Shown here: piece by piece, positions 1 to 56,619 of the stretch
Layout of the letters: each line of letters opens with the position of its first letter
How positions within the stretch are numbered: the first letter of the stretch is position 1
Assembly: GCA_965644265.1 (NCBI GenBank)
Contig: OZ286461.1
Coordinates: forward strand, 106,144,001-106,208,000
Origin: Glycera tridactyla
Lineage: Eukaryota
Reading direction: 5' to 3'
DNA length: 64,000 bases
Made by a program: the position numbers and the translations under genes
Notes under the pieces: generated by a model
The model's input: the letters and a program-made list of their open reading frames with translations, nothing else
Told to the model about the DNA's origin: nothing
The model's database searches: none

Positions 1-1032
1 TATGCTCCTGTTTTTAAGGATTTTAGCCCTCTAAAATAAAAATAGAAAATAAATAAAATGATGAAAAATGCACAATTGTTATCATGAAATAAGTAAAATT
101 ATTTCGTGATTTTTGATATCCTTCTTTCCTTATTACTCCTTCTTTAAAGAAGACTGCCCCAGCTGTCTCCATGTCAATTGAATGTAAAACGTCTCTGTCT
201 TGTGTGTACCTCCTTTTCGAAGCCGCTCAACCCGAGTAATTTATTTTGATAATACAACAATAAATATATGAATAAATATGTGAATAATACATGCATTTTA
301 TTCACAACATGTGTACGGCATGTCTCAAATCATCGGGTCCAATATTCATACAACATCAGAATTTCACTCTTCATGCGTGTTTGTAATCGTGGCGTATGTA
401 TTATGCGTGTATACGTGTTTTCATGCTGTATATAACCATTAATAATAGAATTCACACACTACAAATATATTAACCAAATCCGACAATTTTGTAATTTATC
501 AAGAGTGTACCCCGTCGACACATCGATTTTTCACCAAGACACCGCCTAGAATCCGCGACCGTGATTGGTCTATTCGGATTTGCGCGTGTGTCCGTGGGGG
601 TAACTTCTTCAAAATTAAAACAATGTACTTGGATTCAATAAAAAACGCCGATTATGTGGCAAGTTGTCGAGAAACATTCCATATATTTGGTATTTCCTAA
701 CAGAATCATTTTCACACTGCAACTATCATGATAATGATGACTCAATCCTCTTATGGTAGCTGCTAAACTCATTCGTACGCAGCTGACTCATATGTTTGCC
801 GTCATCACCCGAGAATAAAACTAATGGGTTGTTTGGCACACAACATCTGTAACACATTCATGGTTTCACTTTCGTGACTAATGTTTATACCTCGTGTCAA
901 ACAAGGGTATCTTTGGTATATAAACGTCAATGTAGATTCAATTACCATCTGGGGTAGTTTATCAATATACCCTACCAAACTTTTCGTGGTATAATACCCC
1001 AAGTTCGGAGACTTGAGTCACACTTTGCAGCC

Positions 1033-1302
1033 ATGGATTGCCATTACTGTTTGCTGAAGCTGATCCTTGCTGGATTCCATAACGAAACTTATGTCCATTG
1101 CGTAAATGAGACATCTACGCCTACTATGCCCATTCTATCTACTGAGCATCCTCACATGGACAACGACCAGTCTGTTTGGATATGGGCAATAATACCCATA
1201 CTACTATTGCTGATCATGTTCGCCCTCGTCACATGGCGGGCGTATAGGAAGTTTACTATGGGTAAGTACCCTTTTTGCCAGTTAAAGCTATCAAATAAGT
1301 AA
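1033..1302 (+). CDS. Antisense small single-pass membrane protein (89 aa)
   Basis: Kozak-like GCCATGG; two N-E-T sequons; TM VWIWAIIPILLLLIMFALVTW followed by RAYRK; TATATAAA at 917-924; donor G|GTAAGT at 1261/1262. Confidence 0.55.
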   Translation: MDCHYCLLKLILAGFHNETYVHCVNETSTPTMPILSTEHPHMDNDQSVWIWAIIPILLLLIMFALVTWRAYRKFTMGKYPFCQLKLSNK

Positions 1303-1348
1303 CAATAAGTAACTATAAGTACTGATTACCCCTAATCTGTGTTTCTGC

Positions 1349-1780
1349 ATGTGTGTTATCTGGCATGGTGAATGTGATATGGCGGGTATAATCGTACTTG
1401 TATATTCAGACTTCTTCAGGATTTGCTTCCGAACTGATCTGACTACTAGCCAGTCGTTCGTACTAATTGTCATTGAAACTATCACCGTTACGAGCGGCTC
1501 GTGCCAATGTCTGTGTTATGACTTGTATATCGGGTTTCACGCGTTACCAGTCAAGCGTGTAATCGTAGTCGCCCAGACCTTGCCTGGCTTTCCCGCCGTC
1601 CGTAACATGATCGTTTCACTCTGCGCTGGTTCACTAGTCTCTAGGCGTTGTCGCCGAAACCATTGGATCAGCTTCGTTATAGTAGTAGAAGTCATATCCG
1701 GTATTTATTTTCTTCGCGCTTGCGAGGCGAGCATGATGAATGCTGAATCGGTCCCCACGGCTGTTCGTAACTCCATTTAG
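1349..1780 (+). CDS. Second antisense ORF downstream of env (143 aa, doubtful)
   Basis: Open for 143 codons and followed by AATAAA at 1939-1944. The V/I/C-rich composition resembles a shadow frame, but the in-register minus frame has 7 stops. Confidence 0.25.
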   Translation: MCVIWHGECDMAGIIVLVYSDFFRICFRTDLTTSQSFVLIVIETITVTSGSCQCLCYDLYIGFHALPVKRVIVVAQTLPGFPAVRNMIVSLCAGSLVSRRCRRNHWISFVIVVEVISGIYFLRACEASMMNAESVPTAVRNSI

Positions 1781-1956
1781 CCGAGGCGATCGTTAGGGCG
1801 ATGTTTGCATTGCTCGCCCAGCAGCATCTCCCCATGGGAATAAGTATTAGAACATGTATCTCAGTGGTAATCTATTTCTCGATCGTATTTCAATGGAAAC
1901 AATTGCTTGTGAAACAGAATAAGTTTTAATGATAAGATAATAAATCGTAAATCCTT

Positions 1957-2904
1957 CTATTGTGGACTAATAGCAGGCCTATTAGTCGTTTGCACCGCGA
2001 TTTCCCGTCTTTCCATTATTTCGTAAGAATCTTCATTATCAAGAGATGGTGGTGGTATATTCCTTAGAGCTGTTACTAGCGGCTCTATCGCTCGCGGATT
2101 TGATATGGGTGGTGGTAATGGCCTTTTCGCGAGTTTGTTCCAAGTAGTCTTCTTGTATCTGTATAGAAACCAGGCAGCTATCAATATAGCCGCTAGCAAC
2201 GATACTGCTATGACTAGCACAATGAGTATCGTTAACCAGAGACTTCTCTGCTTTCTCTGGTCGGTGTGGATCAGATTAAATGGATTAAGGGTCCTCCCTT
2301 TTAATATTTCGTCCATCGCTTTATCCAGATCCATTCCGAAAGATATCATATCATCTAGGCCCAACCTTTCATCTTCTGTAGTAATATCCAAGGAAGGTAT
2401 TGGGATGCTATCTATTGATTTCGCATACCTGTTCTTCGTGTATTCTACTAATAAATCCATATTTAGCAGTCTCGATAATGCTGGGAAATTTACAGGAAAA
2501 TCGATTTCCTGCGACATCTGTCTGTCTGTACATCCATGTATAATGGGTGATACCGATAATGTCCTTCCTTGTCCGTCTGTCAACGTAACCTGACATGCAC
2601 AATCCTGGCTGACCACACAAAACCTACATCCTTCCCTAACCATTAACGCTCTTGTTGGACAACCTATGGAAATGGTTTGAGCATTCATGACCAGCAACCT
2701 GCCTGGAGCCAATGAATGCACATCCATTATATCTTCGTCCATTTCCAGTCGGTAGGAACAGTGTTTTGTAATCTTTTCGTTGTCCCCAAGATATAAGCTC
2801 ATGGCGCATGTAGGGTGGTAGGTATCATGGATGGTGGTCATTTGTTTGCAATGCACTGTGTGTGATTTAGTACATTGGATGAAGTCCATTTCACTCATTT
2901 CCAA
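1957..2904 (-). CDS. env: Envelope glycoprotein, C-terminal part (Cys-rich ectodomain, TM anchor, cytoplasmic tail); continues the upstream env ORF in the -1 frame
   Basis: Cys pattern CTKSHTVHC...TCAMSLY...HC...CRFCVVSQDCAC; TM LWLTILIVLVIAVSLLAAILIAAWFLY followed by RYKK. Adding one T to the T4 run (2903-2906) gives ...NTRFLEMSEMDF... and one ~910-aa Env from ATG 4691. Confidence 0.9.
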   Translation of the reverse strand: MEMSEMDFIQCTKSHTVHCKQMTTIHDTYHPTCAMSLYLGDNEKITKHCSYRLEMDEDIMDVHSLAPGRLLVMNAQTISIGCPTRALMVREGCRFCVVSQDCACQVTLTDGQGRTLSVSPIIHGCTDRQMSQEIDFPVNFPALSRLLNMDLLVEYTKNRYAKSIDSIPIPSLDITTEDERLGLDDMISFGMDLDKAMDEILKGRTLNPFNLIHTDQRKQRSLWLTILIVLVIAVSLLAAILIAAWFLYRYKKTTWNKLAKRPLPPPISNPRAIEPLVTALRNIPPPSLDNEDSYEIMERREIAVQTTNRPAISPQ

Positions 2905-4748
2905 AACCTAGTATTGTCTATGGATATACCAAAAATCTTGTTGGGGGCCACAGGCCTAGTGACCAAACTTGCATTTAATGTGGCAGGTACGCTGAAAGTG
3001 GTTAGCTTGAATAGTTTGAAACTCGCATCCGTTGAACGTAGAGGGACCGTGATATGTATTACCAGCTTATTATTTCTCCATGAGTATTCTGGCTTTGCAT
3101 ATTTATAATACGATGCTGGCCTCATATTCGCAACCCTAAACACAATAAATTCCTTCCTTACATGCTCATCAAGGTCCACTAATGCCTTAAATAAGGTTTC
3201 CTCCGGTATTATTGTGGAAGATAGCTCATTTCGTAGCAAAGAACGTAGGCCGGTCATGAAATTGTTCATCTCCCTTTCTACGATTGTTAGGTCCTGTAGT
3301 AGGGTCGCTATCATTGAAACTGCGAATGATGTATATTGTACACTCGCATATAGTCTTTTGTTCAGATTTTCTATGATTGTTGAAAATTTGGTGTCCACAT
3401 GGTTAATAGCTTCTCCCATCTTTATGAGATGTTTGTTGTTGGTTTGTGCGAGTGCAACCGCTTGTTTTTGGAAGGTAATCACTTTGTCCGCCATATTAAA
3501 CTGATTTTCTTCGAGTGTTTTCAATGCCTTGTGTATGTGTTTAGCCTCATCTTGGGTTACGACGCCAAATAGAGAATTCAGAATTTTTCCTCCAAAATTG
3601 AACAATCCTCGTTCCTTCCTTCTTCTTGTATCATCCGGATTGTATTCTGTGGCTTTAACTTGTTCTACGATTATTCCCATTTCTCGTATGTCGGTTTCGG
3701 TTGTTTTCATGGCAAATACTACTGAGTCAATCAGTTCGATGAAGTCCCTATCGTCTGGTTTGACTTCCGAAGTCTCTCGTCTTTGCCTTCTCTCCTGCCT
3801 TTGTTCTGAAGTCTTGATTTTATTCAGTTGATTTACGTAGTATGTACGTAGCTCATTTGCCATGGATTGGAATCTCTCTGTCAAGTAGTGAACATGACCG
3901 CATATATAGCTTCCTTGCGATTCCCATTCAGAAGTACCTTTCGTTCCATGTCCTTTGCATTTGCCATCGTATGCATGCCTTATGTTTCTTAGGCTTCTCT
4001 CAGCTTCTTCTAATGTAACATTCCATCTTCCCCTGATAACTTCAGCTGGCGTTATCCTAGGATCATAGGGGTTTGTAATATTTTCTAATTTAGCTAGGGC
4101 TGTCCCAGCTTCCCATATACCCCTCATAATGATATTGTCCTGTCTGGGAGTATCTTCGACGTATAGAGCTTCCTTTAATGTATTCAAAGCTGCTTTGAGT
4201 GAGGTGATGGACCTTCCCATCTTGATTTTCTTCATTGTCGTAGATCTCTTCGTTCTGATTCGTGCATTCGCACCGTATTCCCATCGTGCGTTAGTCATCA
4301 TCTCATGTAGTAGATCCATGGATATGGCGGTTCTGGTTGCCTTGATTTCGTTCAAAATTCCTTTTAGGTACATACATGTTTCGTTGTTTGTGTCTTCTTC
4401 AATGTTTTCACCCAGACACTGATGCCATTGAAGGCACTCTCCATCCTGGTTTGTCGCACATTGAGTATGGTTGTTCACGTCTGTGAACATAGTAGGGATG
4501 TTCACAATGAACATCAGGTTGAAGGTAGCTGTAGTAGGGATATAGTTACCCTCTATAGGTGAAAAGTGAGCCCCATAGTTTAGCCTTTCAACCAGATTCA
4601 TTCCAGTTGAATCAAGAAAATCCTGGTTTTGGTCCACTTGTTGAGCATTTCCCATAGCTCCACACCACGAGAGTATCATAAGTAACATCATCAAAGAGCA
4701 ATCTTCTCCAATGATTCGTCTTTGGTGCCGTCTTGGTTTAATCACCAC
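2895..4748 (-). CDS. env: Envelope glycoprotein, N-terminal ~600 aa (class I fusion protein, baculovirus F/errantivirus Env type)
   Basis: Signal-like MMLLMILSWCGAMG (first ATG 4691); basic site followed by fusion-peptide-like RRRKER|GLFNFGGKILNSLFG; heptad region; ends at a TGA caused by a frameshift. Confidence 0.9.
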   Translation of the reverse strand: MVIKPRRHQRRIIGEDCSLMMLLMILSWCGAMGNAQQVDQNQDFLDSTGMNLVERLNYGAHFSPIEGNYIPTTATFNLMFIVNIPTMFTDVNNHTQCATNQDGECLQWHQCLGENIEEDTNNETCMYLKGILNEIKATRTAISMDLLHEMMTNARWEYGANARIRTKRSTTMKKIKMGRSITSLKAALNTLKEALYVEDTPRQDNIIMRGIWEAGTALAKLENITNPYDPRITPAEVIRGRWNVTLEEAERSLRNIRHAYDGKCKGHGTKGTSEWESQGSYICGHVHYLTERFQSMANELRTYYVNQLNKIKTSEQRQERRQRRETSEVKPDDRDFIELIDSVVFAMKTTETDIREMGIIVEQVKATEYNPDDTRRRKERGLFNFGGKILNSLFGVVTQDEAKHIHKALKTLEENQFNMADKVITFQKQAVALAQTNNKHLIKMGEAINHVDTKFSTIIENLNKRLYASVQYTSFAVSMIATLLQDLTIVEREMNNFMTGLRSLLRNELSSTIIPEETLFKALVDLDEHVRKEFIVFRVANMRPASYYKYAKPEYSWRNNKLVIHITVPLRSTDASFKLFKLTTFSVPATLNASLVTRPVAPNKIFGISIDNTRFWK

Positions 4749-4770
4749 TGCAACACATAAAGTGGGGATA
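4748..4770 (-). promoter_or_regulatory. Candidate env splice acceptor
   Basis: Minus strand CCCCACTTTATGTGTTGCAG|TGGTG lies at the start of the env frame. Spliced env mRNAs are established for gypsy-type errantiviruses. Confidence 0.5.
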
Positions 4771-5354
4771 GGGACCCATAAATTCCTGTGCCTAGGCCGA
4801 CTTAATTGACAATATAATGGATATTATAATTGTCTAGAACTTTTCTAACAAACTGCGATGTAATGTAGGGCGTTGTTATACAACAAGGATAACCATGAAT
4901 TATTTTATATAATAATTTATGATTTCTACTGTGTGTTTGGATCCGCTTCAATGGAATGTCGGCCTAATGCGGCATTTTTACAGGTTCCCTATTTTTCCCT
5001 ATTTTTCATAGGCGTTCGCCCTTCTTCTTTGCTCATTGACTTTATTGTTTCTTTCTGTGGCAACCGCTCCGGCTGACCACTACCCTTTGCGCGTCCGCAT
5101 TCCTACAAGTTGGTGAATTCACACCTTGACTTGTATATTTTCTGATACTCTCTCGTAATTCCCTGAGCTCCATTTGCTCGAAGCTGCTCCATCATTTGTT
5201 AATATGGGGGAGGTATGGGGTTACCTCCCTCTTCTCCCACCTCTTGGGCTCCCGTGGGACCTTCAGGCTTATTTCCTGGGGTTGCTCATCCCCCTTTACC
5301 CCTGATTTTCACCACTTGTGAATCTTACTCCGAAGAGTCAACATCGCATTTATC

Positions 5355-5975
5355 ATGTCTTCCCAAAATATTGTAGTGGCTTGTATCAGCCAGTTTTGTT
5401 CGAATGGGATAGTGGGTGTCCACTATGACGAAGAGCGAAGGGAGCTTCGCATTTATAGTGGAAGGGTCTCTACTAGTTACGACGACCACATTCTGGACGA
5501 AATTCGCAATTTCATCAGAACAAGGGAGATAGTGGGGTACTACTTTGATCAGGAACAATGTCGTGCCTCTCTAATCGTTAGGTTCAATGGTGGCATTGTT
5601 CTCAACAATGCCAGAGCCGGTGCCTATAGGCACAACGATGGGTGCTCCAATTCTTCTGAGGGGCACGAACATGAGCCTGATAGCCATGACCCACCATCTC
5701 CCCTTGTTTCGAATCAGGATCCCAGAAGGGTTCCTGTTCGAATGTGGCCGAATTTCGTTCACAGAAATTCAGCACCACGTATAGTGGTGCGTCCCAACAA
5801 CTTGTCCCGTTCTGAGGGACGCAACATCGTTGGTCGTGAGGTGAGTGTCTCTTTTATACTCCTTTTTGTCTTTATTATCGTGCTTTCAGCTCCTTCAGCA
5901 TCTTCCTCTTCTCTATACGAGCATTGTAGTCTCTTATGTGTTCTATTGGCACGATATCCGCCCGTAGCCATGTAG
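5355..5975 (+). CDS. Antisense accessory ORF of the retroelement (206 aa, unknown function)
   Basis: ATG-initiated. Internal repeat IVGVHYDEE / IVGYYFDQE with several third-position synonymous differences in this frame. Consensus donor GAG|GTGAGT in phase 0 after codon 162 (5840/5841). Confidence 0.5.
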   Translation: MSSQNIVVACISQFCSNGIVGVHYDEERRELRIYSGRVSTSYDDHILDEIRNFIRTREIVGYYFDQEQCRASLIVRFNGGIVLNNARAGAYRHNDGCSNSSEGHEHEPDSHDPPSPLVSNQDPRRVPVRMWPNFVHRNSAPRIVVRPNNLSRSEGRNIVGREVSVSFILLFVFIIVLSAPSASSSSLYEHCSLLCVLLARYPPVAM

Positions 5976-8900
5976 GCTTCTTGTCGCGCCACTCGCACAT
6001 GTATGAAACCTTTCCATTCTTCGTTGTGGACGTTATGACTTTTACTAGTTTCGACATGTCCGGTGCGCTTGCCTTGCTATCATTCTTCGTTTTGAAGCTG
6101 ATTTCTGGATCCATACTGACTGTATCCGTGTTTGACCTATTGTTTCTTTGCGCATGTTCTCTATTCACAAATGTTCTGCCTCGCTTTCGTCGCCTGGTTA
6201 CAGGCGGTATGTTTGGAAGGGTAGAAGTTTCAGATTCCACACTTTCTTTGTCTTTTTCTCTTCGCGATTCTGTATTTTTCTCTCTTTCTTCTGTATTTTG
6301 CGTATGTCCAATTGTCCGCTCCGAATTTGCATTCTGTCCGTCCTTCTTGGTCCTTTCGGTCCCTCTCAGGGTAGAATCAGCCTCCGGTGTGAATTTCTTC
6401 AGTCTGTTTTCTGGTATTAGATGTTTGAGGTTATGGTTGTGGATTTGCAGTGAATGAAATCCTGGCTTTGGTGTTGAGACTATGATGAAAGGCCCTTCAT
6501 ATTTCTGACTGACTTTGTATTGAGAGGGAACCCTAGGGGTTACTATTTTTGCCCAAACCATATCTCCTGGCTTGAAACCTTTGTATGTAACCTTCTTGGC
6601 TGTGTCATGACGCATTTTCATGTTCTCCGCATTTTTCCTGGCATTTCTGGCTGCTATGTGTCGTATAGCCATTAAATCAGGCCATATTGAAGGGAAAACT
6701 TCTTGTGGTGGGACATCTCGAATTAATGGAGGTTCTTTCGTTATGTCACCGGAGAGGGTTGGTTCCAGACCATACATGATTTCGTAGGGTGCAAATCCAT
6801 GAGATTTGATGGAAATATCATGAGACCAACGAACATGAGGCAAAAATTCCGTCCATGATTTTTCAGGAAACTCCATCATACATGCTCGTAGTGAGCAGAG
6901 AATACTAGAATGTAGTCGTTCTACTGCTGCATTGGCTTGAGGGTGCCAGGAGGTTATATACTGTAGTTTGATACTAAATTGTTCAGCCAAGTATTGGAAG
7001 GTTTTAGACGTGTGAGCTGCTGCTCTGTCTAATACGACCACCTTCGTAGGTCCAAATCGTTGAATCCACATCTTCATAAAATATGTAGCCAGGGTTTCAG
7101 CTTTTTCATTTGGAATGGTTTCAATCTCAAAGTGTTTTGAAAATCTGTCTACGATAACAAGTACTTTCAGTTCCTTATCTTTCGTTGGTGCAACCTTTAA
7201 GACATCCATGTGGATTATTTCAAATAATGAAGCTGGTGGTCTTAATAAAAGGGGTGTCTTTTTATTATTGTAGTCTCTTTTGGCTTGACCGCAGGCTTTG
7301 CAACTAGCCACAAATTTAGCCAAGTCTTCGTACATTCCTGGCCAGTAGAATCGTTGCCTGACGATTTGTAGTAGACTGTTGAAACCTCTGTGGGATCCAT
7401 GTGTTCCATGGTGAAATAATGCTGCTATTTCATACCTCCTAACATGTGGTAAGTATATCTGGTGAAATGTTTTATTGCTCGTATTGTCGTGGAATTTTCG
7501 GCATAAAATTCCGGAATTTGTAAGCAAATATTTGTCCTCCTCTGCCATGATTTTTCTTGCATGGGCAAGAGTCTCTGGCAGAGACTTATTCAATTTATAT
7601 TGATATAGGAATGACGAGTCTTTGTCAGTGGCTTGTTCCAGCGCCATTTTTCTTTCGTCTATCATATATTCTGTATACAACTCGATGCAAGAAGTTTCAT
7701 CCAGTAGTAAGGCTTCCTCGTATGAAATATCATCTGAATCCTCCAGGCCCAGTTGTTTTTCCTCTTTGTCGTACGATGAATCACCCTCACTGTCGGCTAT
7801 GTTTTCGATATCCGTCTCGGACATAACGTTCCCATCAGCGTCTTCCTCGCTGCTGGTACATGATTCTTCCGCGTGGCGGCGAGCGTCTCGCTGGAGGCCG
7901 GTTTTGGCGGGAAAGGTGGGCGTGGCACTTTTCTCTCTTTGACCATGTTGTTTATCCGTTGTGTCGAACATATCGAATCGCCGCTCTGTGGCTTCACACT
8001 CAGATGAATCTATTTCATTGCTGGGCTTGTATGGCTTTGTCCTGATTCCCATTAAACACTCCTTCTTTGTTACTGGTGATTCCAAGAATTCTGTAGTATT
8101 GATAAGACAATGGTTGTCACCTTCTTCATCCATTGATAACATGGGTTGTTCTACGTAGGTTATTCTAGATAAGGTGTCAGCTACAACATTTTCTTTGCCT
8201 GGTTTGTGCAGTACACGGATATTGAATTTATTCAAAAACATTTTATAACGAAAGAGCCTGCCGGTTTTAGTGGCCAGATTGTGTAAATATACGTTTGTCA
8301 AATTATCAGAAAATACTGTTATGTCTGTTTGAGAGCCCAACATTAATTCACATTGTTTCAATGATTCTACGAGTGCCAGGGCTTCTTTCTCATTTGAATG
8401 GTAATTTGCTTGTGATGGATTTAATGTTTTTGATATGAATGCTACAGGCCTGGTTACGTTTTCCTCGTCTTCCTGTGATATAACTGCTCCTACTGCTCTA
8501 CCGCTAGCATCTAGGTATACTGTAAATGGCTTGGCAGGGTCAGGATAGTATAATACCGCATTTTGGAGAAGGGAGGTTTTTATATTGTCTAATGCTTCCT
8601 GGCATTCCTCGGTCCAGATAAATTCATGATCTTTCTGTAGGAGTTTGTTTATTGGTGCAGCTATGGCCGCATATCCTCTTACAAATCTGCGATAGAAGTT
8701 GAGCGTACCCATCAACTGTCTGACTTCTTTGACATTATTAGGGGCTGGGAGCTTTATTAACGCTCCTAATTTGTTAGGATCGGCCTTTACCCCATCTTTG
8801 TTGAAAATATATCCCAGATATTTAACCTCGGATTTCATGAACATGGCCTTTGATGGCGATATACGTAGTCCCACTTGTCTAAGTCTCCACAGAAGTTGAC

Positions 8901-10812
8901 TCATAACTTCTAAGTGTTTTTCATATGTAGGGGTTGTAACAATAATATCGTCCATATATGATGTGACGTATTTTGAGTCCAAAGTGGCTAAACACCTAGA
9001 AATGATGCTTGAAAATATTTCTGGGCTTGAATTTAGGCCCATAGGTGTCTTTGTAAAGGAGTATTTTGCATTGCTGGTATTTATTGTACAAATATCAATA
9101 CTATCTGGTGCCAATTGAACTGCATAGAATGCTGAAGCCAGATCGACTACGGAGAAGACCTTGTTTTTCCCTGCCGCTAAAGTGGCTATAATATCGTTAA
9201 TCGTCGGTATTGGTGATTTTGAGGGAACTATCATTTTGTTCAAATTGGAAAAATCAACCACTAATCTGGGTTTGATGGGTTTACCATCATCATCATACTT
9301 GTATACTACGAAGGTGGGTACACCCAACATAGAATGTGATGGTTTCAATATTCCTGCCTCTACTAATTTTTGAATTTGTTCATTCAAGTCCTTCTCCTGC
9401 TGTGGAGGTAACTTGTATGCCCTCTGATTCACAACTGTTGCTTCTGGCTTTAGTTCTATTCTATGATACACATCTTGTATGACTGCCAACTCGCTCAGGT
9501 CTACGGCAAATGCCTCTCTGTTATTATCTAGAATAGACACTAATTCTTCTCTATACTCGTCAGCCGCAGGTTCCAACGATAATATATCGTCCCAAACGAT
9601 AGGTTTGAAAGTTCGAATCCTAGTCTGGTTCGAAATGTCTACTTCTGTTTGAGTTGATATTTCTCTACTGTTATCGTTTTCTTCCTCCACAACGAAAGGG
9701 GCAGAATAGTCCTGCCGTGGCCATAATACTTGTAATGAGTTTATTTGTTCACCGCTACATGGAAGTGGCGCTGATGGTCTCGCTAATGCTGACCGTTCGC
9801 CTATGTATACAGAACCTGGCATTCCTCTCTCATTAGATGCAGGTCTGGCCACGTTGGCTTGCGCAATGGTAATCCGCGCATCTGAGTCTATATATACGTT
9901 CTTTGAAGTTGGATTCGAAACAGATACCAAGAATGTATTCTTCTGGCTTCTGAAGGCGATTCCCGGAACCGTTGATAGTTGTGGGGTGTTTGTGATTATT
10001 TCATACGAAATATCTAAGGAATCTGGTTCTTTCATGTAATTTGGGGTTATTGTATTCTCACTATCAGCAGTCATATCGATATAACAAGAAATCATTGCGA
10101 TCTCCATAGGTTTCATAATCGTGGAATCTGATGCTCTCAATGTATACGAGCATTCTTTTACCGTTGTCATCAATACGCTGGTGATACCTCCTTCTAAATG
10201 CAATCTGCTCTCTGAATAGTCAATTTTCGCCGCAGTTTGCTGGAGAAATGGTACACCTAAGATGACTTGTAAGGGTATGGCTTCCACTACGAGGAATCTG
10301 ACTAATATTTCCTTACTATTGATAGTTATAGGAATGCTCACTGATCCTATCACTTTCATTTTCTGTGCCTGCGCATCGTATAGTTCTACCTCGTGTTTCG
10401 TGTCTATCTCTCCTCTCAAATCTAACTGTTTCAGCATGTCTTCTGTGATAAGATTAGTTGTAGCTCCTGTATCTACCATAGCCGCTATTTGTGTATGTTT
10501 GATATATATTTTAATAGAGTTAAGTGTACCCAACTTCTGACGTATTCGATTCCTATCACCTGTAGAGAGCGTCAATGATGAATTAACCGTTTCTCTTTTT
10601 GTTATGTTATCATCATTTATTCTTCTGACACTATACACATGCCTACTACTGTTTTCTACATTACTGCCACTACTAATATTTTTCTTATAAAATTTCACTA
10701 CAAATTCTAACAGATCGCAATGATCAGGGAGCGTATGCTCACAATCTATCCCTAATGGACAATCTACCCAATTAAATGCACTCGTGACCCTATTTATGAC
10801 ATGCCCTCTATC
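5875..10812 (-). CDS. pol: Pol polyprotein: aspartic protease, dUTPase-like domain, RT, RNase H, integrase, chromodomain-like C-terminus
   Basis: Uninterrupted frame of 1607 aa in the track plus 38 open codons back to the gag TAG. Motifs: VDTGA (PR), VVDLASAFY/TPMGL/YMDD (RT), DASG...NEKEALA...SDN...VADTLSR (RNase H), H-H-CKAC zinc finger, D-D-E triad (HMDV/VLDR/VERL), KYEGPF. Confidence 0.97.
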   Translation of the reverse strand, partial: DRGHVINRVTSAFNWVDCPLGIDCEHTLPDHCDLLEFVVKFYKKNISSGSNVENSSRHVYSVRRINDDNITKRETVNSSLTLSTGDRNRIRQKLGTLNSIKIYIKHTQIAAMVDTGATTNLITEDMLKQLDLRGEIDTKHEVELYDAQAQKMKVIGSVSIPITINSKEILVRFLVVEAIPLQVILGVPFLQQTAAKIDYSESRLHLEGGITSVLMTTVKECSYTLRASDSTIMKPMEIAMISCYIDMTADSENTITPNYMKEPDSLDISYEIITNTPQLSTVPGIAFRSQKNTFLVSVSNPTSKNVYIDSDARITIAQANVARPASNERGMPGSVYIGERSALARPSAPLPCSGEQINSLQVLWPRQDYSAPFVVEEENDNSREISTQTEVDISNQTRIRTFKPIVWDDILSLEPAADEYREELVSILDNNREAFAVDLSELAVIQDVYHRIELKPEATVVNQRAYKLPPQQEKDLNEQIQKLVEAGILKPSHSMLGVPTFVVYKYDDDGKPIKPRLVVDFSNLNKMIVPSKSPIPTINDIIATLAAGKNKVFSVVDLASAFYAVQLAPDSIDICTINTSNAKYSFTKTPMGLNSSPEIFSSIISRCLATLDSKYVTSYMDDIIVTTPTYEKHLEVMSQLLWRLRQVGLRISPSKAMFMKSEVKYLGYIFNKDGVKADPNKLGALIKLPAPNNVKEVRQLMGTLNFYRRFVRGYAAIAAPINKLLQKDHEFIWTEECQEALDNIKTSLLQNAVLYYPDPAKPFTVYLDASGRAVGAVISQEDEENVTRPVAFISKTLNPSQANYHSNEKEALALVESLKQCELMLGSQTDITVFSDNLTNVYLHNLATKTGRLFRYKMFLNKFNIRVLHKPGKENVVADTLSRITYVEQPMLSMDEEGDNHCLINTTEFLESPVTKKECLMGIRTKPYKPSNEIDSSECEATERRFDMFDTTDKQHGQREKSATPTFPAKTGLQRDARRHAEESCTSSEEDADGNVMSETDIENIADSEGDSSYDKEEKQLGLEDSDDISYEEALLLDETSCIELYTEYMIDERKMALEQATDKDSSFLYQYKLNKSLPETLAHARKIMAEEDKYLLTNSGILCRKFHDNTSNKTFHQIYLPHVRRYEIAALFHHGTHGSHRGFNSLLQIVRQRFYWPGMYEDLAKFVASCKACGQAKRDYNNKKTPLLLRPPASLFEIIHMDVLKVAPTKDKELKVLVIVDRFSKHFEIETIPNEKAETLATYFMKMWIQRFGPTKVVVLDRAAAHTSKTFQYLAEQFSIKLQYITSWHPQANAAVERLHSSILCSLRACMMEFPEKSWTEFLPHVRWSHDISIKSHGFAPYEIMYGLEPTLSGDITKEPPLIRDVPPQEVFPSIWPDLMAIRHIAARNARKNAENMKMRHDTAKKVTYKGFKPGDMVWAKIVTPRVPSQYKVSQKYEGPFIIVSTPKPGFHSLQIHNHNLKHLIPENRLKKFTPEADSTLRGTERTKKDGQNANSERTIGHTQNTEEREKNTESRREKDKESVESETSTLPNIPPVTRRRKRGRTFVNREHAQRNNRSNTDTVSMDPEISFKTKNDSKASAPDMSKLVKVITSTTKNGKVSYMCEWRDKKPTWLRADIVPIEHIRDYNARIEKRKMLKELKAR

Positions 10813-12522
10813 CTAGTGAGAAAAAGGGTTATTTGACCCTGTGTTTCCTGTCGGCCTTGGTCCCTGGGGAGCGTAACCCTGGGAATAGCCTTGGGAATAT
10901 CCTTGAGAATATCCCTGCTGATTTTGCCCATTATATTGTTGGCCTTGAGAATTAAATTGTCCCATGGTCTGGGTCTCTCTTACTCTATTGATGGCTTGAG
11001 CCATAAATCCGTCATGGTGCTGGGGATTAGTAATGTTGACATACGTCTTCATTACTTTGAAACAATTATTTGATGTATGCCCCGGCTTCAAACATGCTTC
11101 ACAGACAGGTGTATTTTCATCTATTTTCTTATTATAATTATTATATGTTCCAGGCCCAGGCGTGCCCCAGGAGGGAGGATCGGACGACGAGTTCGAACTC
11201 TGAGTCAAACTGGTGAGTCTCTTTTTACAGTCCCTGGCTATATGGCCTATCTTACCACAATGGTAGCATGTGATTTTTCTTCTAGTTTCTTGGTCCCCTG
11301 TTGGTCCATTATTTATTAACTCCCTTATTGCGTTCAAAAGTTCTTTGTTTTCGGGAGGTTCTTTCTCCTGTTTCTGAGGGACCTTTTGGTCCTCTTCCCT
11401 TTCTTTTATTATTGGTGTAGTTGATATGGCTGCAACTTTGTCCGTCAATTGCTGCATTTGTTCTGGTAAACTGGATAGTGCCTCTGAACTGGGCAATCTT
11501 TTATCCAATTTATCCATTACTACACTGATAGTCGCATCCATTGTCGACTCCGTAGCTATTTCTTCTAAATTTCCAGCGGTTTCTGCTGCTTCTAATACTG
11601 AATCCACGGTTAATGGATTTGCCATCAACATGTAGTTTTTAGCAACTGGGTTCAACCCAGATAATATAATACTTTTGTATTCACCAAATTGCGCTTGATT
11701 AAAGGCTTGTCCTTGTTTCAATTTGAATAAAAACCTACATTTATTCACTATTCTCATACAAAATTGTTTAGGTGTTTGTGCTGCACCCTGTTTGGTTTTA
11801 TACAATTTAGCCCTAAAGGCAGGCTCACTGTTTCCTTGTACACAGTATTCTGCAAGAAATCTTCTTTCTATTTCCTCGAAAGAAGTGTCTTTTGTCACAT
11901 GGACAGTGCAGTACCATTGCTTCACTGTGTCACTAAGGTTAAATGGAAAGTGTCTGACCTTTTCATAGTCAGACAGTCCGTGTAATGCACAGTATTCATT
12001 GAATAAGTCCAACCATTCAATGGGATTGTTTTTGGCTTGAAATTGCTGTACCTTGACTAGACTCTTATCCTTCACTACGAAGGTATGTTGAGCTTGAGGC
12101 ATAAAATTCGGTGGTTGTGAAGAAGGTGGGCCATGGATGGCCATGTTATGTTCCACCAGTCCTGTTTTGGGACGGGTACCTGCCCCTAATGGGACGTCCC
12201 TAGGCGTGCTTGTCCTTGCACCAAAAGATGTGTGATCAATGTTTGACAAAAATGGATCATAAGTTTCTGGTATATTATATGTGTAGCGAGGGGGAGGGTA
12301 ATATGCATTGTCAAAAGAATGTAATTCACCTGTTCTTTTTTGAGATGGGTTCCTTCTCGTGAATTCCCCTGGCGTAATTCCTTGATTCATATTCTCCTGT
12401 GTCATAATCCCTGTATTTCTGCTTTCTTGTAGTGTAATCCCTGAATTTCCTTTTTCTTGTGGTGTAATTCCTAAATTCCTGTTTCCCTTTTGTTTCAGAG
12501 CCTTCGAAAGCCGTCTATCCAC
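10813..12522 (-). CDS. gag: Gag (capsid-like domain plus two CCHC zinc knuckles)
   Basis: 569-aa frame. Retrotransposon-gag-like segment NNPIEWLDLFNEYCALHGLSDYEKVRHFPFNLSDTVKQWY; knuckles CYHCGKIGHIARDC and CEACLKPGHTSNNC. The track start is GTG, so the true start is uncertain. Confidence 0.92.
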   Translation of the reverse strand: MDRRLSKALKQKGNRNLGITPQEKGNSGITLQESRNTGIMTQENMNQGITPGEFTRRNPSQKRTGELHSFDNAYYPPPRYTYNIPETYDPFLSNIDHTSFGARTSTPRDVPLGAGTRPKTGLVEHNMAIHGPPSSQPPNFMPQAQHTFVVKDKSLVKVQQFQAKNNPIEWLDLFNEYCALHGLSDYEKVRHFPFNLSDTVKQWYCTVHVTKDTSFEEIERRFLAEYCVQGNSEPAFRAKLYKTKQGAAQTPKQFCMRIVNKCRFLFKLKQGQAFNQAQFGEYKSIILSGLNPVAKNYMLMANPLTVDSVLEAAETAGNLEEIATESTMDATISVVMDKLDKRLPSSEALSSLPEQMQQLTDKVAAISTTPIIKEREEDQKVPQKQEKEPPENKELLNAIRELINNGPTGDQETRRKITCYHCGKIGHIARDCKKRLTSLTQSSNSSSDPPSWGTPGPGTYNNYNKKIDENTPVCEACLKPGHTSNNCFKVMKTYVNITNPQHHDGFMAQAINRVRETQTMGQFNSQGQQYNGQNQQGYSQGYSQGYSQGYAPQGPRPTGNTGSNNPFSH

Positions 12523-12528
12523 AACGTT

Positions 12529-12885
12529 TCATACGGACTCCTCATCGTCACCATCATCACTGCTTAGATCCCCACCATCCTCTGCTTCCGTGTCCTCTTC
12601 ATCGTCTTCTTCAGCCGCTTTTTCCCGATCTTCTTCATTTTGCCGCTTGCCAACGTCTTCTGCAGCTTCTTCGCCATCTTTTCCTGCAATTTCTTGATTT
12701 TTGGACAATTCTTTCCCTGCTTTCTTCGTATTTTCGTCATCAGACATGCTTGCCTGCGCTGCTTGACTTTTAAATGTTACCTCGCCGCTACTATCACCTT
12801 CCAGATCACCTAGCTCTCTTCCTCCAGCCCGAACGATCGTCGTCGAACGTGGCGTGTCCGTATACGTTTTTGAAGACTGTTCCAT
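12529..12885 (-). CDS. Acidic 118-aa ORF upstream of, and in frame with, gag (separated by one TGA)
   Basis: ATG start, D/E-rich (EEDDEEDTEAEDGGDLSSDDGDDEESV*); continues in frame as *NVVDRRLSK into gag. Confidence 0.45.
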   Translation of the reverse strand: MEQSSKTYTDTPRSTTIVRAGGRELGDLEGDSSGEVTFKSQAAQASMSDDENTKKAGKELSKNQEIAGKDGEEAAEDVGKRQNEEDREKAAEEDDEEDTEAEDGGDLSSDDGDDEESV

Positions 12886-13187
12886 ATCATACCCGGATTC
12901 TCCACCATATATTATGATGGGCTACCGGTCTGTTGTAGTGTATGCTGCGTGGGGCGGTCGAAGGTACGGATCACCAAATTGCTCGCGTTCTCCTACGTTT
13001 CCTCCCGATGCCAATATGCTTGCAATAAACGATGTGGAGTCCACTTCTTCTTCTCGGTTTTCACTATGAATGACTAGTGTTAGAGTGTCACTATAATTCA
13101 CAAGAGTTCCTGTACGTGGGGGTAAGGTGTATACGAAGTGTAACACAACTCGCTCAAATAGTGATGTATAAAGCAGGCCGTTAAGCT

Positions 13188-13724
13188 CTACTCAGTGAGG
13201 TACTGGATCTTCATGGAGTCGATGTCGTAGCCGTCTGTCTGGTAGTCCGTCCCCTTCCTTGCCCCTGGGTATAACGTCTGGTAGTGCCCGAATTGCAGTA
13301 CCCCGATTTCTCGATTTTCTGGGGATTTTATAGTAAAGTGAGGTATGCCGTTTCTAAGCATATCTCGGCCAATTCTGACGTGTGAGTGGCATGAGTCGTA
13401 TTGGTGACTAATAAGGTGTCCGACATGATCGGGAGGTGCATTCCTCACCGTCTGGGACCATTTTTGGGTTCCTGGGACCCGGCAGTGCCGAGATTTTGAC
13501 CTACAAAACCTACGTCACTTGACTACAGTAAATAGGTCAATTTTGACGTAGGACCGGCAATTTGGCTTGTTCAATGCCTTATATAGAATGTTCTTGACCA
13601 TTTTCCAAGAAATCCGGTGGTTCTGGCGCTTGTAGCTCGTATGATAGCCGCTACTGCGCTTTGAACGTGGTACCCCCTCTAGGAAGTATTGGTCTATTAA
13701 TATTTGCAGCATCAGACTGGCCAT
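13188..13724 (-). pseudogene. Upstream leader ORF(s) of the retroelement, interrupted by a TGA at 13515-13517
   Basis: Track ORFs 13515-13724 and 13188-13448 share a frame and the gap between them is open. The distal part has coding-like codon usage (GTDYQTDGYDIDSMKIQY). Confidence 0.3.
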
Positions 13725-13810
13725 GGGCTAAGCCGCGCTCAGTCTTTTGCCCGCTAGCTTTCGTTCCAATCGGACGTATGTATTGCTAGTTCTACAGGAA
13801 TCATATATAT

Positions 13811-33685: not shown

Positions 33686-34596
33686 CCCCCCAACACAAAC
33701 AACACACAACCTCCGAATCCTCTTCCCTGTCTTTCAATTCTTCCTCTTCCATATTTCGATAATACTACGAGAATATGTCCACAATAAAACATGGCAATAT
33801 CCTATGAATTGAGCGATTTCGCAATATGTAATCCTATTTCAGACAAGAATAGGGGTCGCTGCAAAAGCAAATGGAACAGATTTGCCACGACAGCGAATCA
33901 CGGGCGAACGCAATTTCTCAAAATATTTCAATAGAGGCCCACCCACTTTATTTCCCCTGCGGAGGCCGCACCTTTGACAATACCCTATTACCAACCTCGT
34001 GTGTGTAATCACCACAGCCGAATGGCATGTGTGGCGGAGTACCTGGACACTTAGCATCCATTTAGCACTGACTCTAATCCGCTAATACCCACCCACATGG
34101 CAAGCCCAGAGTGGATCAATGTGATCACCAGGTAGGTGGATGGAAGAGCTTCCCTGAATCCCAACAGAGTTCCCTATTGTAATTGTTGATGGACGTTGAG
34201 GCAGTGCCGTTAACTTTTCCTGTCTCCGTAAATATTCCGTGTCACGATGACATCGTGAGATGTTCTATGTTTTCAGATAGTATAACAGATTCATTACTAC
34301 TACTTCTACCACCACTTCTACTTCTTCCACCACTATTACAACTACTACCAGGTGGCGCCACCGAAGCGAGCGCGCGTACCTTTGAAAAACAAACGGATAG
34401 CGCAAGAAAATTGGCATTTTGGACATGTTAGAGTCATCTACCATGAATGGATCTCAACATGTAAACGTGGGATATACCAGAGAAAAGGAACGCAAACAAA
34501 TGGAGAAGTTTTGGAACTTTCTTGGTGACTTTTCAGTAGTGGTTATGGACCACTGCACAGAGTACATGTAGTCAAGCCTGGCTGCACACAGTCAAC

Positions 34597-35563
34597 ATGA
34601 GTGGGGGAGTAGAGGACAGACTTGATACCATCGTCAAGAGGCTTGACTCAGTAGTGGATCGCCTCGATGACCTCAAGAAGGATATGGCGCAAATGGAAGG
34701 TAGATTGGAAAGAAGGATCGATAAAACAGCAGAGGATCTACGTAGAGAAATGAAGGGCCATATCGCTTCGGAAATAAATCCAGTGAAACAGGATGTACAT
34801 AAGCTTGATTCAAGGATAGCCAACACCGAGTCGAAGATTGGGAAGTTGCGAAAAGACTTGGTAAAACCCTTTGAGCCAGAAAGATCGGTTGCGATATACG
34901 GATTATTCCAGAAAGAAAATGAATCATTAGAGGATTGTGTTCAGAACCTCATTAGGGGCATACTAGAACTGGATATAATTGTGAAAAACTGTGAAAGGAA
35001 AAAAGCATGGGACAAAAAAAAAGGCAGGTGTTGTTTTGGTTGAATGTGAAAGTGAAAATGACAGAACGGCTATACTGAAAGCAAAAAAGCGCTGTGCGGA
35101 AGTAGAAGAGGCCAAACGTATCTCAATAAGAGGATGTGAGTCACATGAAACCAGAAGATGCAAGTCTAATAGTAGAGCAATAGTGTCATATTTTGATATG
35201 GGCAGAGACTATTACGTCACGGCACACGGTTACCTTAGACGCAAAGAAGATGAAAACCGCGACGATCGTAACGTGTTTGCAGACGATCCACAACGAAGGG
35301 CCATGCCCCCTCGGATGGGCGATAATGTAAAACTTGGACATGCACGTGCGGCGAGTAAACAACAACAAGAGCCAAACACACACGAACAAAACCCGAATGA
35401 CTACGGAGATGCCCGAAGTGATGGCCGAAGAAGCAACGGAGAAAGCCGAAGCCCGACCGGACCAAGAGACGACGGTAGATACAGGGGCGGCCGCAATACG
35501 AGATCAAGTTACCGGGACAATCCAGGCCGAGGTGCAAACAATAATCACAACAGAGACAGATAG
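34597..35563 (+). CDS. LINE ORF1 (coiled coil plus RRM/CTD-like, R/G-rich tail); 1-nt insertion in A9 run at 35014-35022
   Basis: Heptad-like N-terminus RLDTIVKRLDSVVDRLDDLKKDMAQMEGRL. Track ORFs 34597-35043 and 34991-35563 join as WDKKKAGVVLVECESENDRTAILKAKK if one A is removed. Confidence 0.85.
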
Positions 35564-38500
35564 AATCATGAGGAGAAGGAAATTAGCGAGTCAATCGCAA
35601 TCGGTGTATGGAATATTAATGGATGGCTAGGTAGCCACCATGAATTCAAAGAAAGAATACTTGAATATTTCAACTCAGATGTGTATGTTTTGACAGAAAC
35701 CTGGGCCAGACAGCATGACATCATTGTAATACCAGGGTACGTGGTATACCAGAACAATAGAAAATTAGTTAATAAAAAGAGTGCACGTGGTTCTGGTGGT
35801 TTTGCGATAGCAATCAAATATACCATTCTAGAGAGGTTTGAGTTGAAACGCACTGATGATGACTATGAAGGTATACTGAGAGTCCAGCTGAAACACAAGA
35901 GATCTGACTGCCTAATAACAGTAATTGGTGTATATATTCCGCCCGAAAATAGCGTTTACGCTACAGCAGCTGATGAGTCATTTGAAATTCTTACGACAAT
36001 GTTATATGAATGTGAAAACGATGATTTCGTGTATGTATGTGGGGATTTGAACGCGAGGGTGGGAAGCAAAAAAGATTTCATAGAGGGGGTGGATGAAATA
36101 GAGGATAGATGTGTGATAGATGAAACCCACAATGATCATGGAATATCCCTTATCAATTTCCTGCTACAAACAAAATGCTGTATTCTAAATGGGAGAATAT
36201 GCCCTTTAAGTGATAACTTCACATCAATCAGTATGAAAGGAAAATCTGTTGTAGACTACGGAATCGTACCCCATGATAACCTATACATGGTGAAAGACTT
36301 CAGCACTATTACATGCTCAGAGCTGGGATTCGCAGTAGAAGGGAATATGAGGGGGCGCGCTTCAGATCACAGTTTGTTGCTCATGAAATGTGTTATCGAC
36401 CACCACTCTAGCGGAGAATGTGAGAACCAGCCTGTATGCACAAGCACGGTAGATGGCGGGGCGGAAGATGACAACGATGCATGTGTAGAACGATTGAAAC
36501 CGCCACGCAGATATAAGAGAAACGAGTTACCAATTTCCTTCATATCACCTGATCTGTTGAAACAAATACAAGAGAGAATAAATGTTCTCGCCATACAGGA
36601 AACCAACCAACAAGCCATAGATATACTATTTCAAGATCTCTGTAAGGTGTATCATGCAGAACTAGGCAAAGTCTGGAAAGTAATTAAAGACACACCTAGT
36701 TCAGGTAAAAGGTTCAAATTCAAAAAGTGTCCATACTGGTCAGATGAGCTGAACTCACTATATGAAAAAATGCATCAAACCGAGAAAATGTTTTTGAGAG
36801 CCAAGAAAAAGAACCAAACCCAGAAACATCTCAGAAGCGAGTTTGCGAGAGCCCAGAGCGAGTTTGACAAGAAACTGAAACAAACTAAACGTAAGTTTAA
36901 TAGAAATCAAGTTCTCAGCCTAGAAAAAACTAACATTTCAGACCAAAATGAATTCTGGCGACAAATCTCGAGAATGGGCCCTCGGAAACCCGCCAAACCC
37001 CCATGGGAGGTATATGATGAAGGGGGAAATGTTGTGACTGAAAAAAAGGTGGTACTGGAAAAATGGAAAAATGAATTTCAGGGTCTCTTGACACCACCTA
37101 TATGTACAGACCAGAATCAATTGAACTTCGAAGAATTTATTGTGGATGAGAATGTGAGAATAGAAGAACTGAATGAGAGAACGAATGATACAAATGCAGA
37201 AATCAATGTATGTCTCACATGTAAAGAGGTTGAAAAGATCATAAAGAAGGCAAAAACTGGCAAAGCGGTAGGCATTGATGGAATCCCCGCAGAAGCATTT
37301 AAAAATCAGGAATCCATAGCCATACTCACTGATCTTTTTAATCTCTGCCTCAAACAACACATGTTGCCCTCAGTCTGGTCCCTGGGGATGATAAACCCCA
37401 TCCCAAAGAGCAAAACCTCTGACCCAAGAGTACCTCTCAATTACAGGGGAATCAGCCTGTTACCTGTGGTCAGCAAGCTGTACACGGCTGGAATATCAAA
37501 TAGACTATCTGATTATATGGAAAAGAATGATCTTCTATCAAATGAGCAAAATGGCTTCAGACCGGAACGGTCATGTATAGATCATTTATATACGCTAAAC
37601 ACAATCTGTAAGGTACGCAAAGAACTAAAACAGGAGACATTCCTAACATTTATTGACTATGCAAAAGCCTTCGATTATGTTAACAGAGATTTCCTATTTC
37701 ATAAACTATTGGCGAAAAAGATAAATGGTGACATTTACTATGCAATCAAAGAAGTCTACAAAAATCCGAAAAGCTGTGTACAGTTTGATGGCAACTTGAC
37801 AGGCTGGTTCCCTGTAACATCTGGTGTGAGGCAAGGTGATTCGTTGAGCCCACTACTGTTTGCGGTGTTTATCGATGATTTAGTAGAAGAGATAAGAGAG
37901 TGCAGAGGAGGTGTATTCATTGGAGGTGAACAACTTCCAATCCTATTGTATGCAGACGATATTGTCTTGATTGCTAGCACGATAGAGGGCGCTCAATCGC
38001 AGTTGAATGTATTGACCGACTGGTGCGATAGATGGCGTATGTCCATAAATGCAAGTAAAAGCCAGGTGGTTCATATTAGACATCACCAAAGAAGCCGAGA
38101 AGAACGCCCGCTTCGTTGCTGTAACCAGGACTTAAAATATGTTGCAAACTATAAATACCTGGGTTTGCTGATAAATGAATTTCTATCGCACCAGGCGGCC
38201 ATTGACTCATTAGTAGCTGCAGCGTCAAGGTCTTTTGGTAGAATTGTATGTATATTTAAAAAGCTGAAGAATCTAGGTATCAAGACGTATGAATCGCTGC
38301 ATGAATCCTATGTTATACCTATACTAAACTACGGTGCATGTGTATGGGGGTACAAGGAGTATCATGATCCTAAGATACTAGAGAACAGGATTATACGATT
38401 TTACTTAGGTGTCCACAAATACACTGCCGTATCTGCAACAAATATTGAAATGGACTGGTTGGATGTAAGATACAAGAGGTGGATGGACATGATTAGATAT

Positions 38501-39133
38501 AGAAATAGAATTGTTAAGATGAAAGGATCGAGATGGCCAAAGAAGATCTTTGCATGGGAAAGATCACTCAAACTGAACACATGGGCCAGAGAAATCGAGA
38601 ATATCCTGTCTTCTTGTCAAATGATACCTGTTGTCCATGAAGATGATGCCATTATTGATCTTGATGTATTGTATGCAAGATTGAAGTGTATGTGGAGAGA
38701 GAAAATATGGGAGGAAGCACTACAGAAACCAAAACTAAGAACTTTCGTAAAGATCCATGATACTTCAAAGCAACAAACCATTGTCTCTTGTAACATATCA
38801 CGGGTCAATAGAAGCAATATCATTAAGTTAAAGTGTGGAGTGCTCCCTCTCATAGTAGAGACAGGAAGATACAAAAATATACCATTGGAGAAAAGAACTT
38901 GTCAGATCTGTGATGCAAATGAAATAGAAGACGAAAGACACTTCCTTCTGGAATGCCCCGGGCTAAAAACAGAAAGAGATACTATGACTCAGGAACTATC
39001 GACTATTGATACATTTGTTAGTGGGGAAGATGTTGAAAGCATCAAACTTATGGTATCAGAACAATGTGTGAAAGTAACAGCCAAACACCTGACTCGTTTG
39101 TTGGAACGGAGGAGAGAACTGATGTATAAATGA
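35564..39133 (+). CDS. LINE ORF2: AP endonuclease, reverse transcriptase, C-terminal CCHC finger
   Basis: Frame is open from the ORF1 TAG: IGVWNING, LTETW, GDLNAR, SVVDY, SDH (APE); QNGFR, FIDYAKAFD, GVRQG, LYADD (RT); ETGRY...CQIC...EDERHFLLEC. Confidence 0.97.
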   Translation, partial: NHEEKEISESIAIGVWNINGWLGSHHEFKERILEYFNSDVYVLTETWARQHDIIVIPGYVVYQNNRKLVNKKSARGSGGFAIAIKYTILERFELKRTDDDYEGILRVQLKHKRSDCLITVIGVYIPPENSVYATAADESFEILTTMLYECENDDFVYVCGDLNARVGSKKDFIEGVDEIEDRCVIDETHNDHGISLINFLLQTKCCILNGRICPLSDNFTSISMKGKSVVDYGIVPHDNLYMVKDFSTITCSELGFAVEGNMRGRASDHSLLLMKCVIDHHSSGECENQPVCTSTVDGGAEDDNDACVERLKPPRRYKRNELPISFISPDLLKQIQERINVLAIQETNQQAIDILFQDLCKVYHAELGKVWKVIKDTPSSGKRFKFKKCPYWSDELNSLYEKMHQTEKMFLRAKKKNQTQKHLRSEFARAQSEFDKKLKQTKRKFNRNQVLSLEKTNISDQNEFWRQISRMGPRKPAKPPWEVYDEGGNVVTEKKVVLEKWKNEFQGLLTPPICTDQNQLNFEEFIVDENVRIEELNERTNDTNAEINVCLTCKEVEKIIKKAKTGKAVGIDGIPAEAFKNQESIAILTDLFNLCLKQHMLPSVWSLGMINPIPKSKTSDPRVPLNYRGISLLPVVSKLYTAGISNRLSDYMEKNDLLSNEQNGFRPERSCIDHLYTLNTICKVRKELKQETFLTFIDYAKAFDYVNRDFLFHKLLAKKINGDIYYAIKEVYKNPKSCVQFDGNLTGWFPVTSGVRQGDSLSPLLFAVFIDDLVEEIRECRGGVFIGGEQLPILLYADDIVLIASTIEGAQSQLNVLTDWCDRWRMSINASKSQVVHIRHHQRSREERPLRCCNQDLKYVANYKYLGLLINEFLSHQAAIDSLVAAASRSFGRIVCIFKKLKNLGIKTYESLHESYVIPILNYGACVWGYKEYHDPKILENRIIRFYLGVHKYTAVSATNIEMDWLDVRYKRWMDMIRYRNRIVKMKGSRWPKKIFAWERSLKLNTWAREIENILSSCQMIPVVHEDDAIIDLDVLYARLKCMWREKIWEEALQKPKLRTFVKIHDTSKQQTIVSCNISRVNRSNIIKLKCGVLPLIVETGRYKNIPLEKRTCQICDANEIEDERHFLLECPGLKTERDTMTQELSTIDTFVSGEDVESIKLMVSEQCVKVTAKHLTRLLERRRELMYK

Positions 39134-56590: not shown

Positions 56591-56619
56591 GTCATATATC
56601 TATACCGTAACGTGACGCA

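Follow-up and report, generated by a model that had tools for sequence, protein, structure and literature searches.

A putative antisense accessory gene with overlapping predicted RNA structure between pol and env of a Ty3/gypsy element in Glycera tridactyla

Between pol and env of a Ty3/gypsy element in Glycera tridactyla lies a gap of 1.2 kb, and the locus raises the question of whether this gap is occupied by a gene on the opposite strand, by a structured RNA or by both. The element lies on the minus strand and fills the first 13.8 kb of the window, which is the whole 64,000-nucleotide stretch of DNA analysed here; sense therefore refers to the minus strand and antisense to the plus strand. 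A preliminary description of the locus had read a dense array of perfect hairpins at 5200–5820 as a cis-acting structured RNA, such as an export element, an internal ribosome entry site (IRES) for env or a splicing regulator, and had left the overlapping antisense ORF as a bystander. The evidence set out below tips somewhat toward two overlaid layers in the gap, an antisense accessory gene and a structured RNA in its 3′ part, and of the two it is the supposed bystander for which selection is most strongly supported.

The element and its gene content

Pfam matches and the ORF map place three genes on the minus strand. The gag gene (10813–12921) has a CCHC knuckle and an acidic N-terminal part, and gag opens with a long acidic ORF in the related loci as well; pol (5875–10812) lies behind the in-frame TAG that ends gag and encodes protease, reverse transcriptase (RT), RNase H and integrase; and an F-type env (Baculo_F, PF12259, E 1e-9) occupies 1957–4691. 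The gap under study runs from the pol stop at 5875 to the env ATG at 4691. This copy is damaged, with an in-frame stop in gag at 12529–12531 and env split over two frames by a break near 2900, both env pieces being matched by full-length relatives of 860–1029 aa. The 5′ end of the element meets an N gap from 13811, and a search for paired LTRs found no long repeat. No relatives of the element were found in viral contigs or in prokaryote genomes, and a word search with env gave no matches.

As in errantiviruses, gag is followed by protease, RT, RNase H and integrase in that order in pol, with an F-type env after pol. By gene content, the element appears to belong with the F-type-env errantiviruses described across invertebrates by Chary and Hayashi (PMC13524379), with which it shares the gag-pol-env order, a Ty3/gypsy pol and the F-type env. 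The available portion of the main text of that paper contains no occurrence of antisense, intergenic, splice or secondary structure and describes no accessory gene.

Several further features of the element and its surroundings were noted. At the gag/pol junction (10810–10815, minus strand) a TAG closes gag and pol is open in the same frame directly behind it, which suggests stop-codon readthrough over frameshifting; folding immediately behind this TAG is unremarkable. The end of pol (5878–6010, minus strand), which is common to P0001–P0007 and stands behind a long variable linker, presumably resembles a chromodomain, and Pfam gave no match to Chromo there. A chromodomain-bearing errantivirus clade is described from cnidarians, molluscs and annelids (PMC13524379). 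An AATAAA at 5871–5876 (minus strand) overlaps the pol stop, just ahead of the structured stretch on the sense strand, and may be due to chance, the hexamer occurring 24 times on the sense strand in 13.8 kb. Among the more distant relatives, contigs L001 (1–1309) and L006 (1–942) carry env ahead of gag, as for tandem or collapsed copies, and L002 has env fragments only behind pol. Elsewhere in the window are a LINE-like element recognized by translation (34540–39133, plus strand; coiled ORF1 pieces and a 1189-aa ORF with endonuclease- and RT-like motifs), LINE-like fragments at 40292–41101 and 55323–56591, and a tandem repeat with a 72-nt unit at about 46600–47600.

Coding evidence on the antisense strand

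Ten public runs contain parts of the stretch; they carry four organism labels, of which three are coded and one is a sediment metagenome. Four of the 10 runs, all of them contigs, were aligned to 4550–6250 at 80% likeness. The alignment yielded 287 substitutions, 267 pieces, 48 loose ends and 39 indels, and the counts given here rest on the 40 best-supported of the substitutions and on 32 of the pieces, 24 of the loose ends and 12 of the indels. The substitution and piece counts are not independent because the copies are related. No RNA source is on record among the runs, and the contigs, which are unstranded, contained no splice joint, a result that speaks neither for nor against expression. 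Ten of the loose ends, which form 7 distinct groups, were scored as differences at single sites, three of which are also among the listed substitutions; two more gave, by eye, the length before the ATG at 5355, and 12 were excluded (11 outside the region and 1 not alignable). One contig from run X1 departs at 5547, inside the antisense ORF, into 111 unrelated letters, as an insertion or a rearranged copy.

The conserved part of the antisense ORF spans 5355–5840 on the plus strand, 162 codons from an ATG to a splice-donor-like site, and belongs to no known family; an open frame of this length has a chance of 4e-4 per frame and start at the local composition. Among the best 40 of 287 substitutions, 14 fall within it, of which 11 are at third positions, and all 11 are synonymous in the antisense frame, compared with an expectation of 4.3 of 14 under random placement (Monte Carlo P 5e-5; binomial P 7e-4). 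Upstream, at 4800–5354, the 21 listed substitutions split 7/7/7 by codon position and show no codon bias. All 11 codons changed by the listed loose ends in the first 55 codons are synonymous, one through a double change, whereas in 5520–5840 this holds for only 2 of 9 changed codons; the first 55 codons thus appear tightly constrained at the protein level, and the remainder appears to tolerate amino-acid changes. By hand count, the frame is kept in all 11 listed contig pieces that lie in the ORF or slightly beyond it (8 ungapped, 2 with −9 and 1 with −1/+1), some of them at 15–19% divergence, and 8 of 11 listed pieces in the non-coding part are frame-shifted. The pol tail (5876–6250) served as a weak positive control: of its 5 listed substitutions, 2 leave the pol protein unchanged. 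On the minus strand, the frame whose third positions coincide with those of the ORF has 8 stops over 5355–5761, because of which the ORF is not a shadow of a sense gene, and 8 of the 14 substitutions are synonymous in that frame.

The length just ahead of the ATG at 5355 varies by −1, 0 or +1 among relatives (by eye, from the listed loose ends), and the start of the ORF was therefore placed at this ATG. In-frame splicing of an upstream antisense ORF into this one was considered and rejected on the same variation in length. The preceding 5200–5354 is a non-coding leader that carries the stems 5208–5229 and 5327–5338 (the latter a UUCG hairpin on the sense strand) and in which relatives have frame-breaking indels at 5271, 5276 and 5289 as well as changes in the UUCG stem. 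Beyond 5840 the unspliced frame continues to a stop (5841–5975, plus strand; 206 codons in total), with a hydrophobic tail that overlaps the end of pol. Its frame is lost in relatives, and beyond about 5850 the tail lacks conservation, because listed pieces spanning 5820–5920 carry net +13, +7 and +5 letters. The predicted donor-like site at the end of the conserved part, GAG/GTGAGT (5838–5846, cut at 5840/5841), is one of just 3 matches to the strict donor pattern on the plus strand in 1–13800. After env lies a second antisense ORF (1033–1261, plus strand) of 76 codons with a hydrophobic, membrane-like segment and no family at E 0.001; it closes at a strict donor-like site, GG/GTAAGT (1261/1262), and both antisense ORFs end at donor-like sites.

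Taken on this evidence, the ORF at 5355–5840 is very probably a protein-coding gene, a putative accessory gene that runs antisense to gag, pol and env and is under purifying selection. As with the antisense additional ORFs of other LTR elements (aORF-3R), it lies downstream of pol and is kept across copies.

The encoded protein had no homologue in a 5.8-billion search (lengths 113–361 only; 268 candidates), in the ESM Atlas, PDB sequences, viral contigs or prokaryote genomes, in the related loci L001–L006 or among the matches listed for 204 proteins. No family was assigned in Pfam or PHROGs, and the whole ORF gave no Pfam family at E 0.1. Two single-sequence models reached pLDDT values of 44 and 48; both of these low-confidence models predict a helix flanked by strands in the first 90 residues, with disorder beyond, and Foldseek and VIA-align returned no clear match with them, a result that does not show a novel fold. 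A weak internal repeat was seen (E 0.002, 10 residues). The protein may resemble a KTSC-like nucleic-acid-binding domain; KTSC is not listed for it in a Pfam scan at E 10, and the models are too poor for a fold search. The distant relatives L001–L006 (45–60% integrase identity) have neither a homologue of the ORF nor any DNA likeness in the pol-env gap, and the ORF is therefore limited to a subfamily. Post-pol stretches in two of these relatives nevertheless fold beyond shuffles (L002 11050–11499, z −5.2; L003 5450–5749, z −4.2), and L002 has an antisense ORF of 87 codons (11026–11289) unlike that of the window.

Predicted structure in the 3′ part of the antisense gene

All ten stems of the array as first described were recovered, from the sequence and the perfect-repeat list or, for 5327–5338 and 5708–5742, from folds. 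The array is also dense as claimed: 8 perfect inverted repeats with arms of at least 6 lie in 5200–5820 compared with 1.4 in dinucleotide shuffles, 0 of 1000 of which reach 8, and the folding z-score of the whole stretch is −8.3 on the plus strand and −10.7 on the minus strand (20 shuffles each). Set against the rest of the element, it still exceeds shuffles, but its density is not unique, because bins in gag and integrase are comparable. Inverted repeats of the same kind number 8 in integrase (7063–7683) and 7 in gag (11410–12030); in local folding over 21 bins (12 shuffles) a gag bin (z −5.9) is stronger than the array bin (z −4.8), with integrase at −4.1; and among 45 windows of 300 nt the lowest is 5350–5649 (z −4.9), with 7450–7749 at −4.7. 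On the sense strand, 5488–5840 folds at z −7.7 (100 shuffles).

The largest predicted feature was absent from the earlier list. It is an irregular rod of 190 nt (5520–5707, minus strand), in which about 5520–5580 pairs with 5635–5707 on both strands, with apical stems at 5591–5613 and 5620–5633 and with helices at a pair probability >0.7 on both strands. Folds of the adjoining 5708–5833 (minus strand) predict stems at 5708–5742, 5772–5790 and 5794–5833 (which includes 5804–5820), and a stem at 5750–5770 on the plus strand; the last of these and 5377–5392 likewise had not been listed. In this copy, the protein-constrained part of the ORF (5355–5519) holds the stems 5377–5392, 5409–5426, 5435–5450 and 5499–5513 of the inverted-repeat list. 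Nothing credible was found by Rfam in 4700–6300 (best E 5.5, far under gathering scores) or in 4 of 6 related loci. A CUGAUGA at about 5515 was considered as part of a ribozyme and rejected by eye, as it lies in a plain hairpin without the hammerhead partner motif.

Folding was also compared with a permutation that keeps both the encoded protein and the codon set. Under this null, 5520–5708 has z −6.4/−6.5 and 5709–5840 has z −5.3/−5.0, whereas 5355–5519 has z −0.8 (plus) and −2.4 (minus) and the gag, integrase and env controls range from −2.8 to +0.3. The coding stretches 11400–12019 in gag and 7060–7750 in integrase, at z −5.9 and −4.1 against shuffles, come to −2.8 and −1.9 under synonymous permutation.

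The comparison with relatives is more mixed. A compensatory pair at 5598/5606, G-C to A-U, occurs in runs X1 and X5 and is the only one among the listed changes; at nearby 5600, and likewise at 5769, the changed base stays paired in the sense-strand fold but not in that of the plus strand. Loops hold the −1/+1 indel pair as well as the amino-acid changes at 5601/5603 and 5811/5812. C-to-T changes at 5450, 5636 and 5723 keep a G-U pair on the plus strand only. Pairs are broken on both strands in relatives at 5411, 5414, 5709, 5772, 5774 and 5777, and in the UUCG stem too; synonymous changes disrupt the stem 5409–5426, and 5708–5742 and 5772–5790 are partly disrupted. Substituted sites on the sense strand were paired in 4 of 19 cases (unmatched, P 0.004–0.016), and in a test matched for base and codon over 5520–5840 they were again less paired at spans of at least 200 (P 0.016–0.032), a depletion that rests on 9–14 sites, is lost at span 150 (P 0.15–0.18) and on the plus strand has P 0.10–0.18; these stem-avoidance tests were post hoc and rest on 9–19 sites.

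These results lend modest support to a sense-strand structure in 5520–5840, which has a little better than an even chance of being under selection, and the conservation of the structure is weak. The structured-RNA claim thus holds for 5520–5840, which folds beyond the protein-keeping null and shows weak stem avoidance; the stems of 5200–5520 are not supported as conserved structure, the UUCG hairpin and 5409–5426 both being disrupted in relatives.

The alternative that survives best is that the antisense gene is real and the hairpins are an idle by-product of composition and lineage history. That most of the named stems are disrupted in at least one relative, that a single compensatory pair was found and that bins in gag and integrase reach comparable folding against dinucleotide shuffles would all be expected of it, but it does not account for the folding of 5520–5840 at z −5 to −6.5 with protein and codon set fixed, unlike the controls, or for the weak avoidance of sense-strand stems by substitutions. 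We regard it as a serious though minority possibility. Considerably less probable is a structure that acts on the antisense transcript, or that limits sense/antisense pairing and dsRNA-triggered silencing, in a bifunctional RNA like that of HBZ. Both strands fold about equally, the three C-to-T changes favour the plus strand, and bifunctional retroviral antisense RNAs are known (PMC10186651); against this, no significant avoidance of plus-strand stems was seen in the matched test, and the changes at 5600 and 5769 keep their pairs on the sense strand only.

A possible signal on genomic RNA and its parallels

The array had also been proposed as an IRES driving env. Folding upstream of env is indeed strong, and such sequences are reported for some errantiviruses (PMC3383448), but the array is not directly before the env AUG: about 510 nt with 10 AUGs lie between them, and a predicted splice-acceptor-like site (4748–4770, minus strand), the only one found on the sense strand in 4690–5200, stands 57 nt ahead of the env ATG at 4691, all of which makes an IRES very unlikely. 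Codon bias is absent from the short sense ORFs that follow the array. An acceptor-like site was also seen on the plus strand at 5011. Equally improbable is a pure cis-acting RNA in which the antisense ORF is open by chance or shadows a sense frame, a reading that the orphan status and poor models of the protein would suit and that the synonymous third-position bias, the frame-keeping indels and the stops in the sense frame contradict.

Under the two-layer reading, the first layer would be the accessory gene, read from the ATG at 5355 with its frame kept to about 5840, and the second the 190-nt rod and several stems formed by its 3′ part, more likely on the sense strand. An antisense transcript, spliced and initiated from a promoter on the env/3′ side, would supply a small regulatory protein, and env would be translated from a sense mRNA spliced to the acceptor at 4748. 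Since splicing to this predicted acceptor would remove the structure, it would stand on unspliced RNA alone and may flag the full-length genomic RNA for export from the nucleus or for packaging. In retroviruses, signals of both kinds act on unspliced RNA. The modelled structure is probably a signal on unspliced genomic RNA overlaid on the antisense gene, and, given a structure, an export- or packaging-type role is about evenly balanced with other roles. As a separate observation, 4800–4930, flanked by the starts of env and of the antisense ORF, which point away from each other, is AT-rich with TATA-like words and is a candidate internal promoter.

In plant Ty3/gypsy elements (Grande gene23, RIRE2 and Retand), antisense ORFs downstream of pol are kept across copies, their function being unknown, and Grande gene23 has its own promoter (PMC7264820). 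These ORFs lie between pol and the 3′ LTR, and the review, in the portion available, does not describe an F-type env alongside them; the ORF of the window instead lies between pol and an F-type env, over predicted RNA structure and without a Pfam match. Among animal Ty3/gypsy elements, the LTR elements of bdelloid rotifers likewise carry additional genes behind pol, but these are of ORF3 type and of enzyme or env origin, and no antisense ORF is described in the accessible text (PMC5408684), nor in that of an annelid survey (PMC8220671). A literature search that covered few subscription journals found neither errantiviruses nor annelid elements described with an antisense gene.

HIV-1 asp and HTLV-1 HBZ offer further parallels as antisense genes of env-bearing retroelements; asp partly coincides with the RRE, a structured export element, and the HBZ RNA is spliced and bifunctional (PMC8781085, PMC10186651). 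Unlike asp, which overlaps the env coding sequence, the ORF of the window is almost free of sense coding, and it shares no sequence likeness with either gene, has no Rfam match over it and would have only a purely hypothetical Rev-like partner. The likeness to RRE- or CTE-like elements lies in the predicted rod with apical stem-loops, and the placement in an env intron follows from the predicted acceptor. By analogy, the layout may work like an antisense accessory gene, perhaps over an RRE-like element, outside every curated RNA family. A bolder extension would have the antisense-encoded protein bind the RNA structure folded from the opposite strand of the gene that encodes it and thereby regulate the export or packaging of genomic RNA; such a Rev/RRE-like pair, with an origin separate from that of vertebrate retroviruses, is a long shot.

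Accessory genes were not shown for errantiviruses in a 2012 review (PMC3383448, as available), and a 2026 survey of 1512 elements makes no mention of antisense genes in the accessible main text (PMC13524379). Antisense ORFs of retroelements are already known; new here is a putative antisense accessory gene overlaid by predicted RNA structure in an env-bearing gypsy element. Should the structure prove idle, the gene would still stand as an orphan accessory protein, and should it not, its 320 nt would be a candidate for telling unspliced genomic RNA from spliced env mRNA. If the reading is true, surveys built on three sense ORFs overlook genes, and selection on an antisense gene in the pol-env gap would mean that such elements can be 'complex' as the word is used for retroviruses, their two layers resembling the layout of complex ones.
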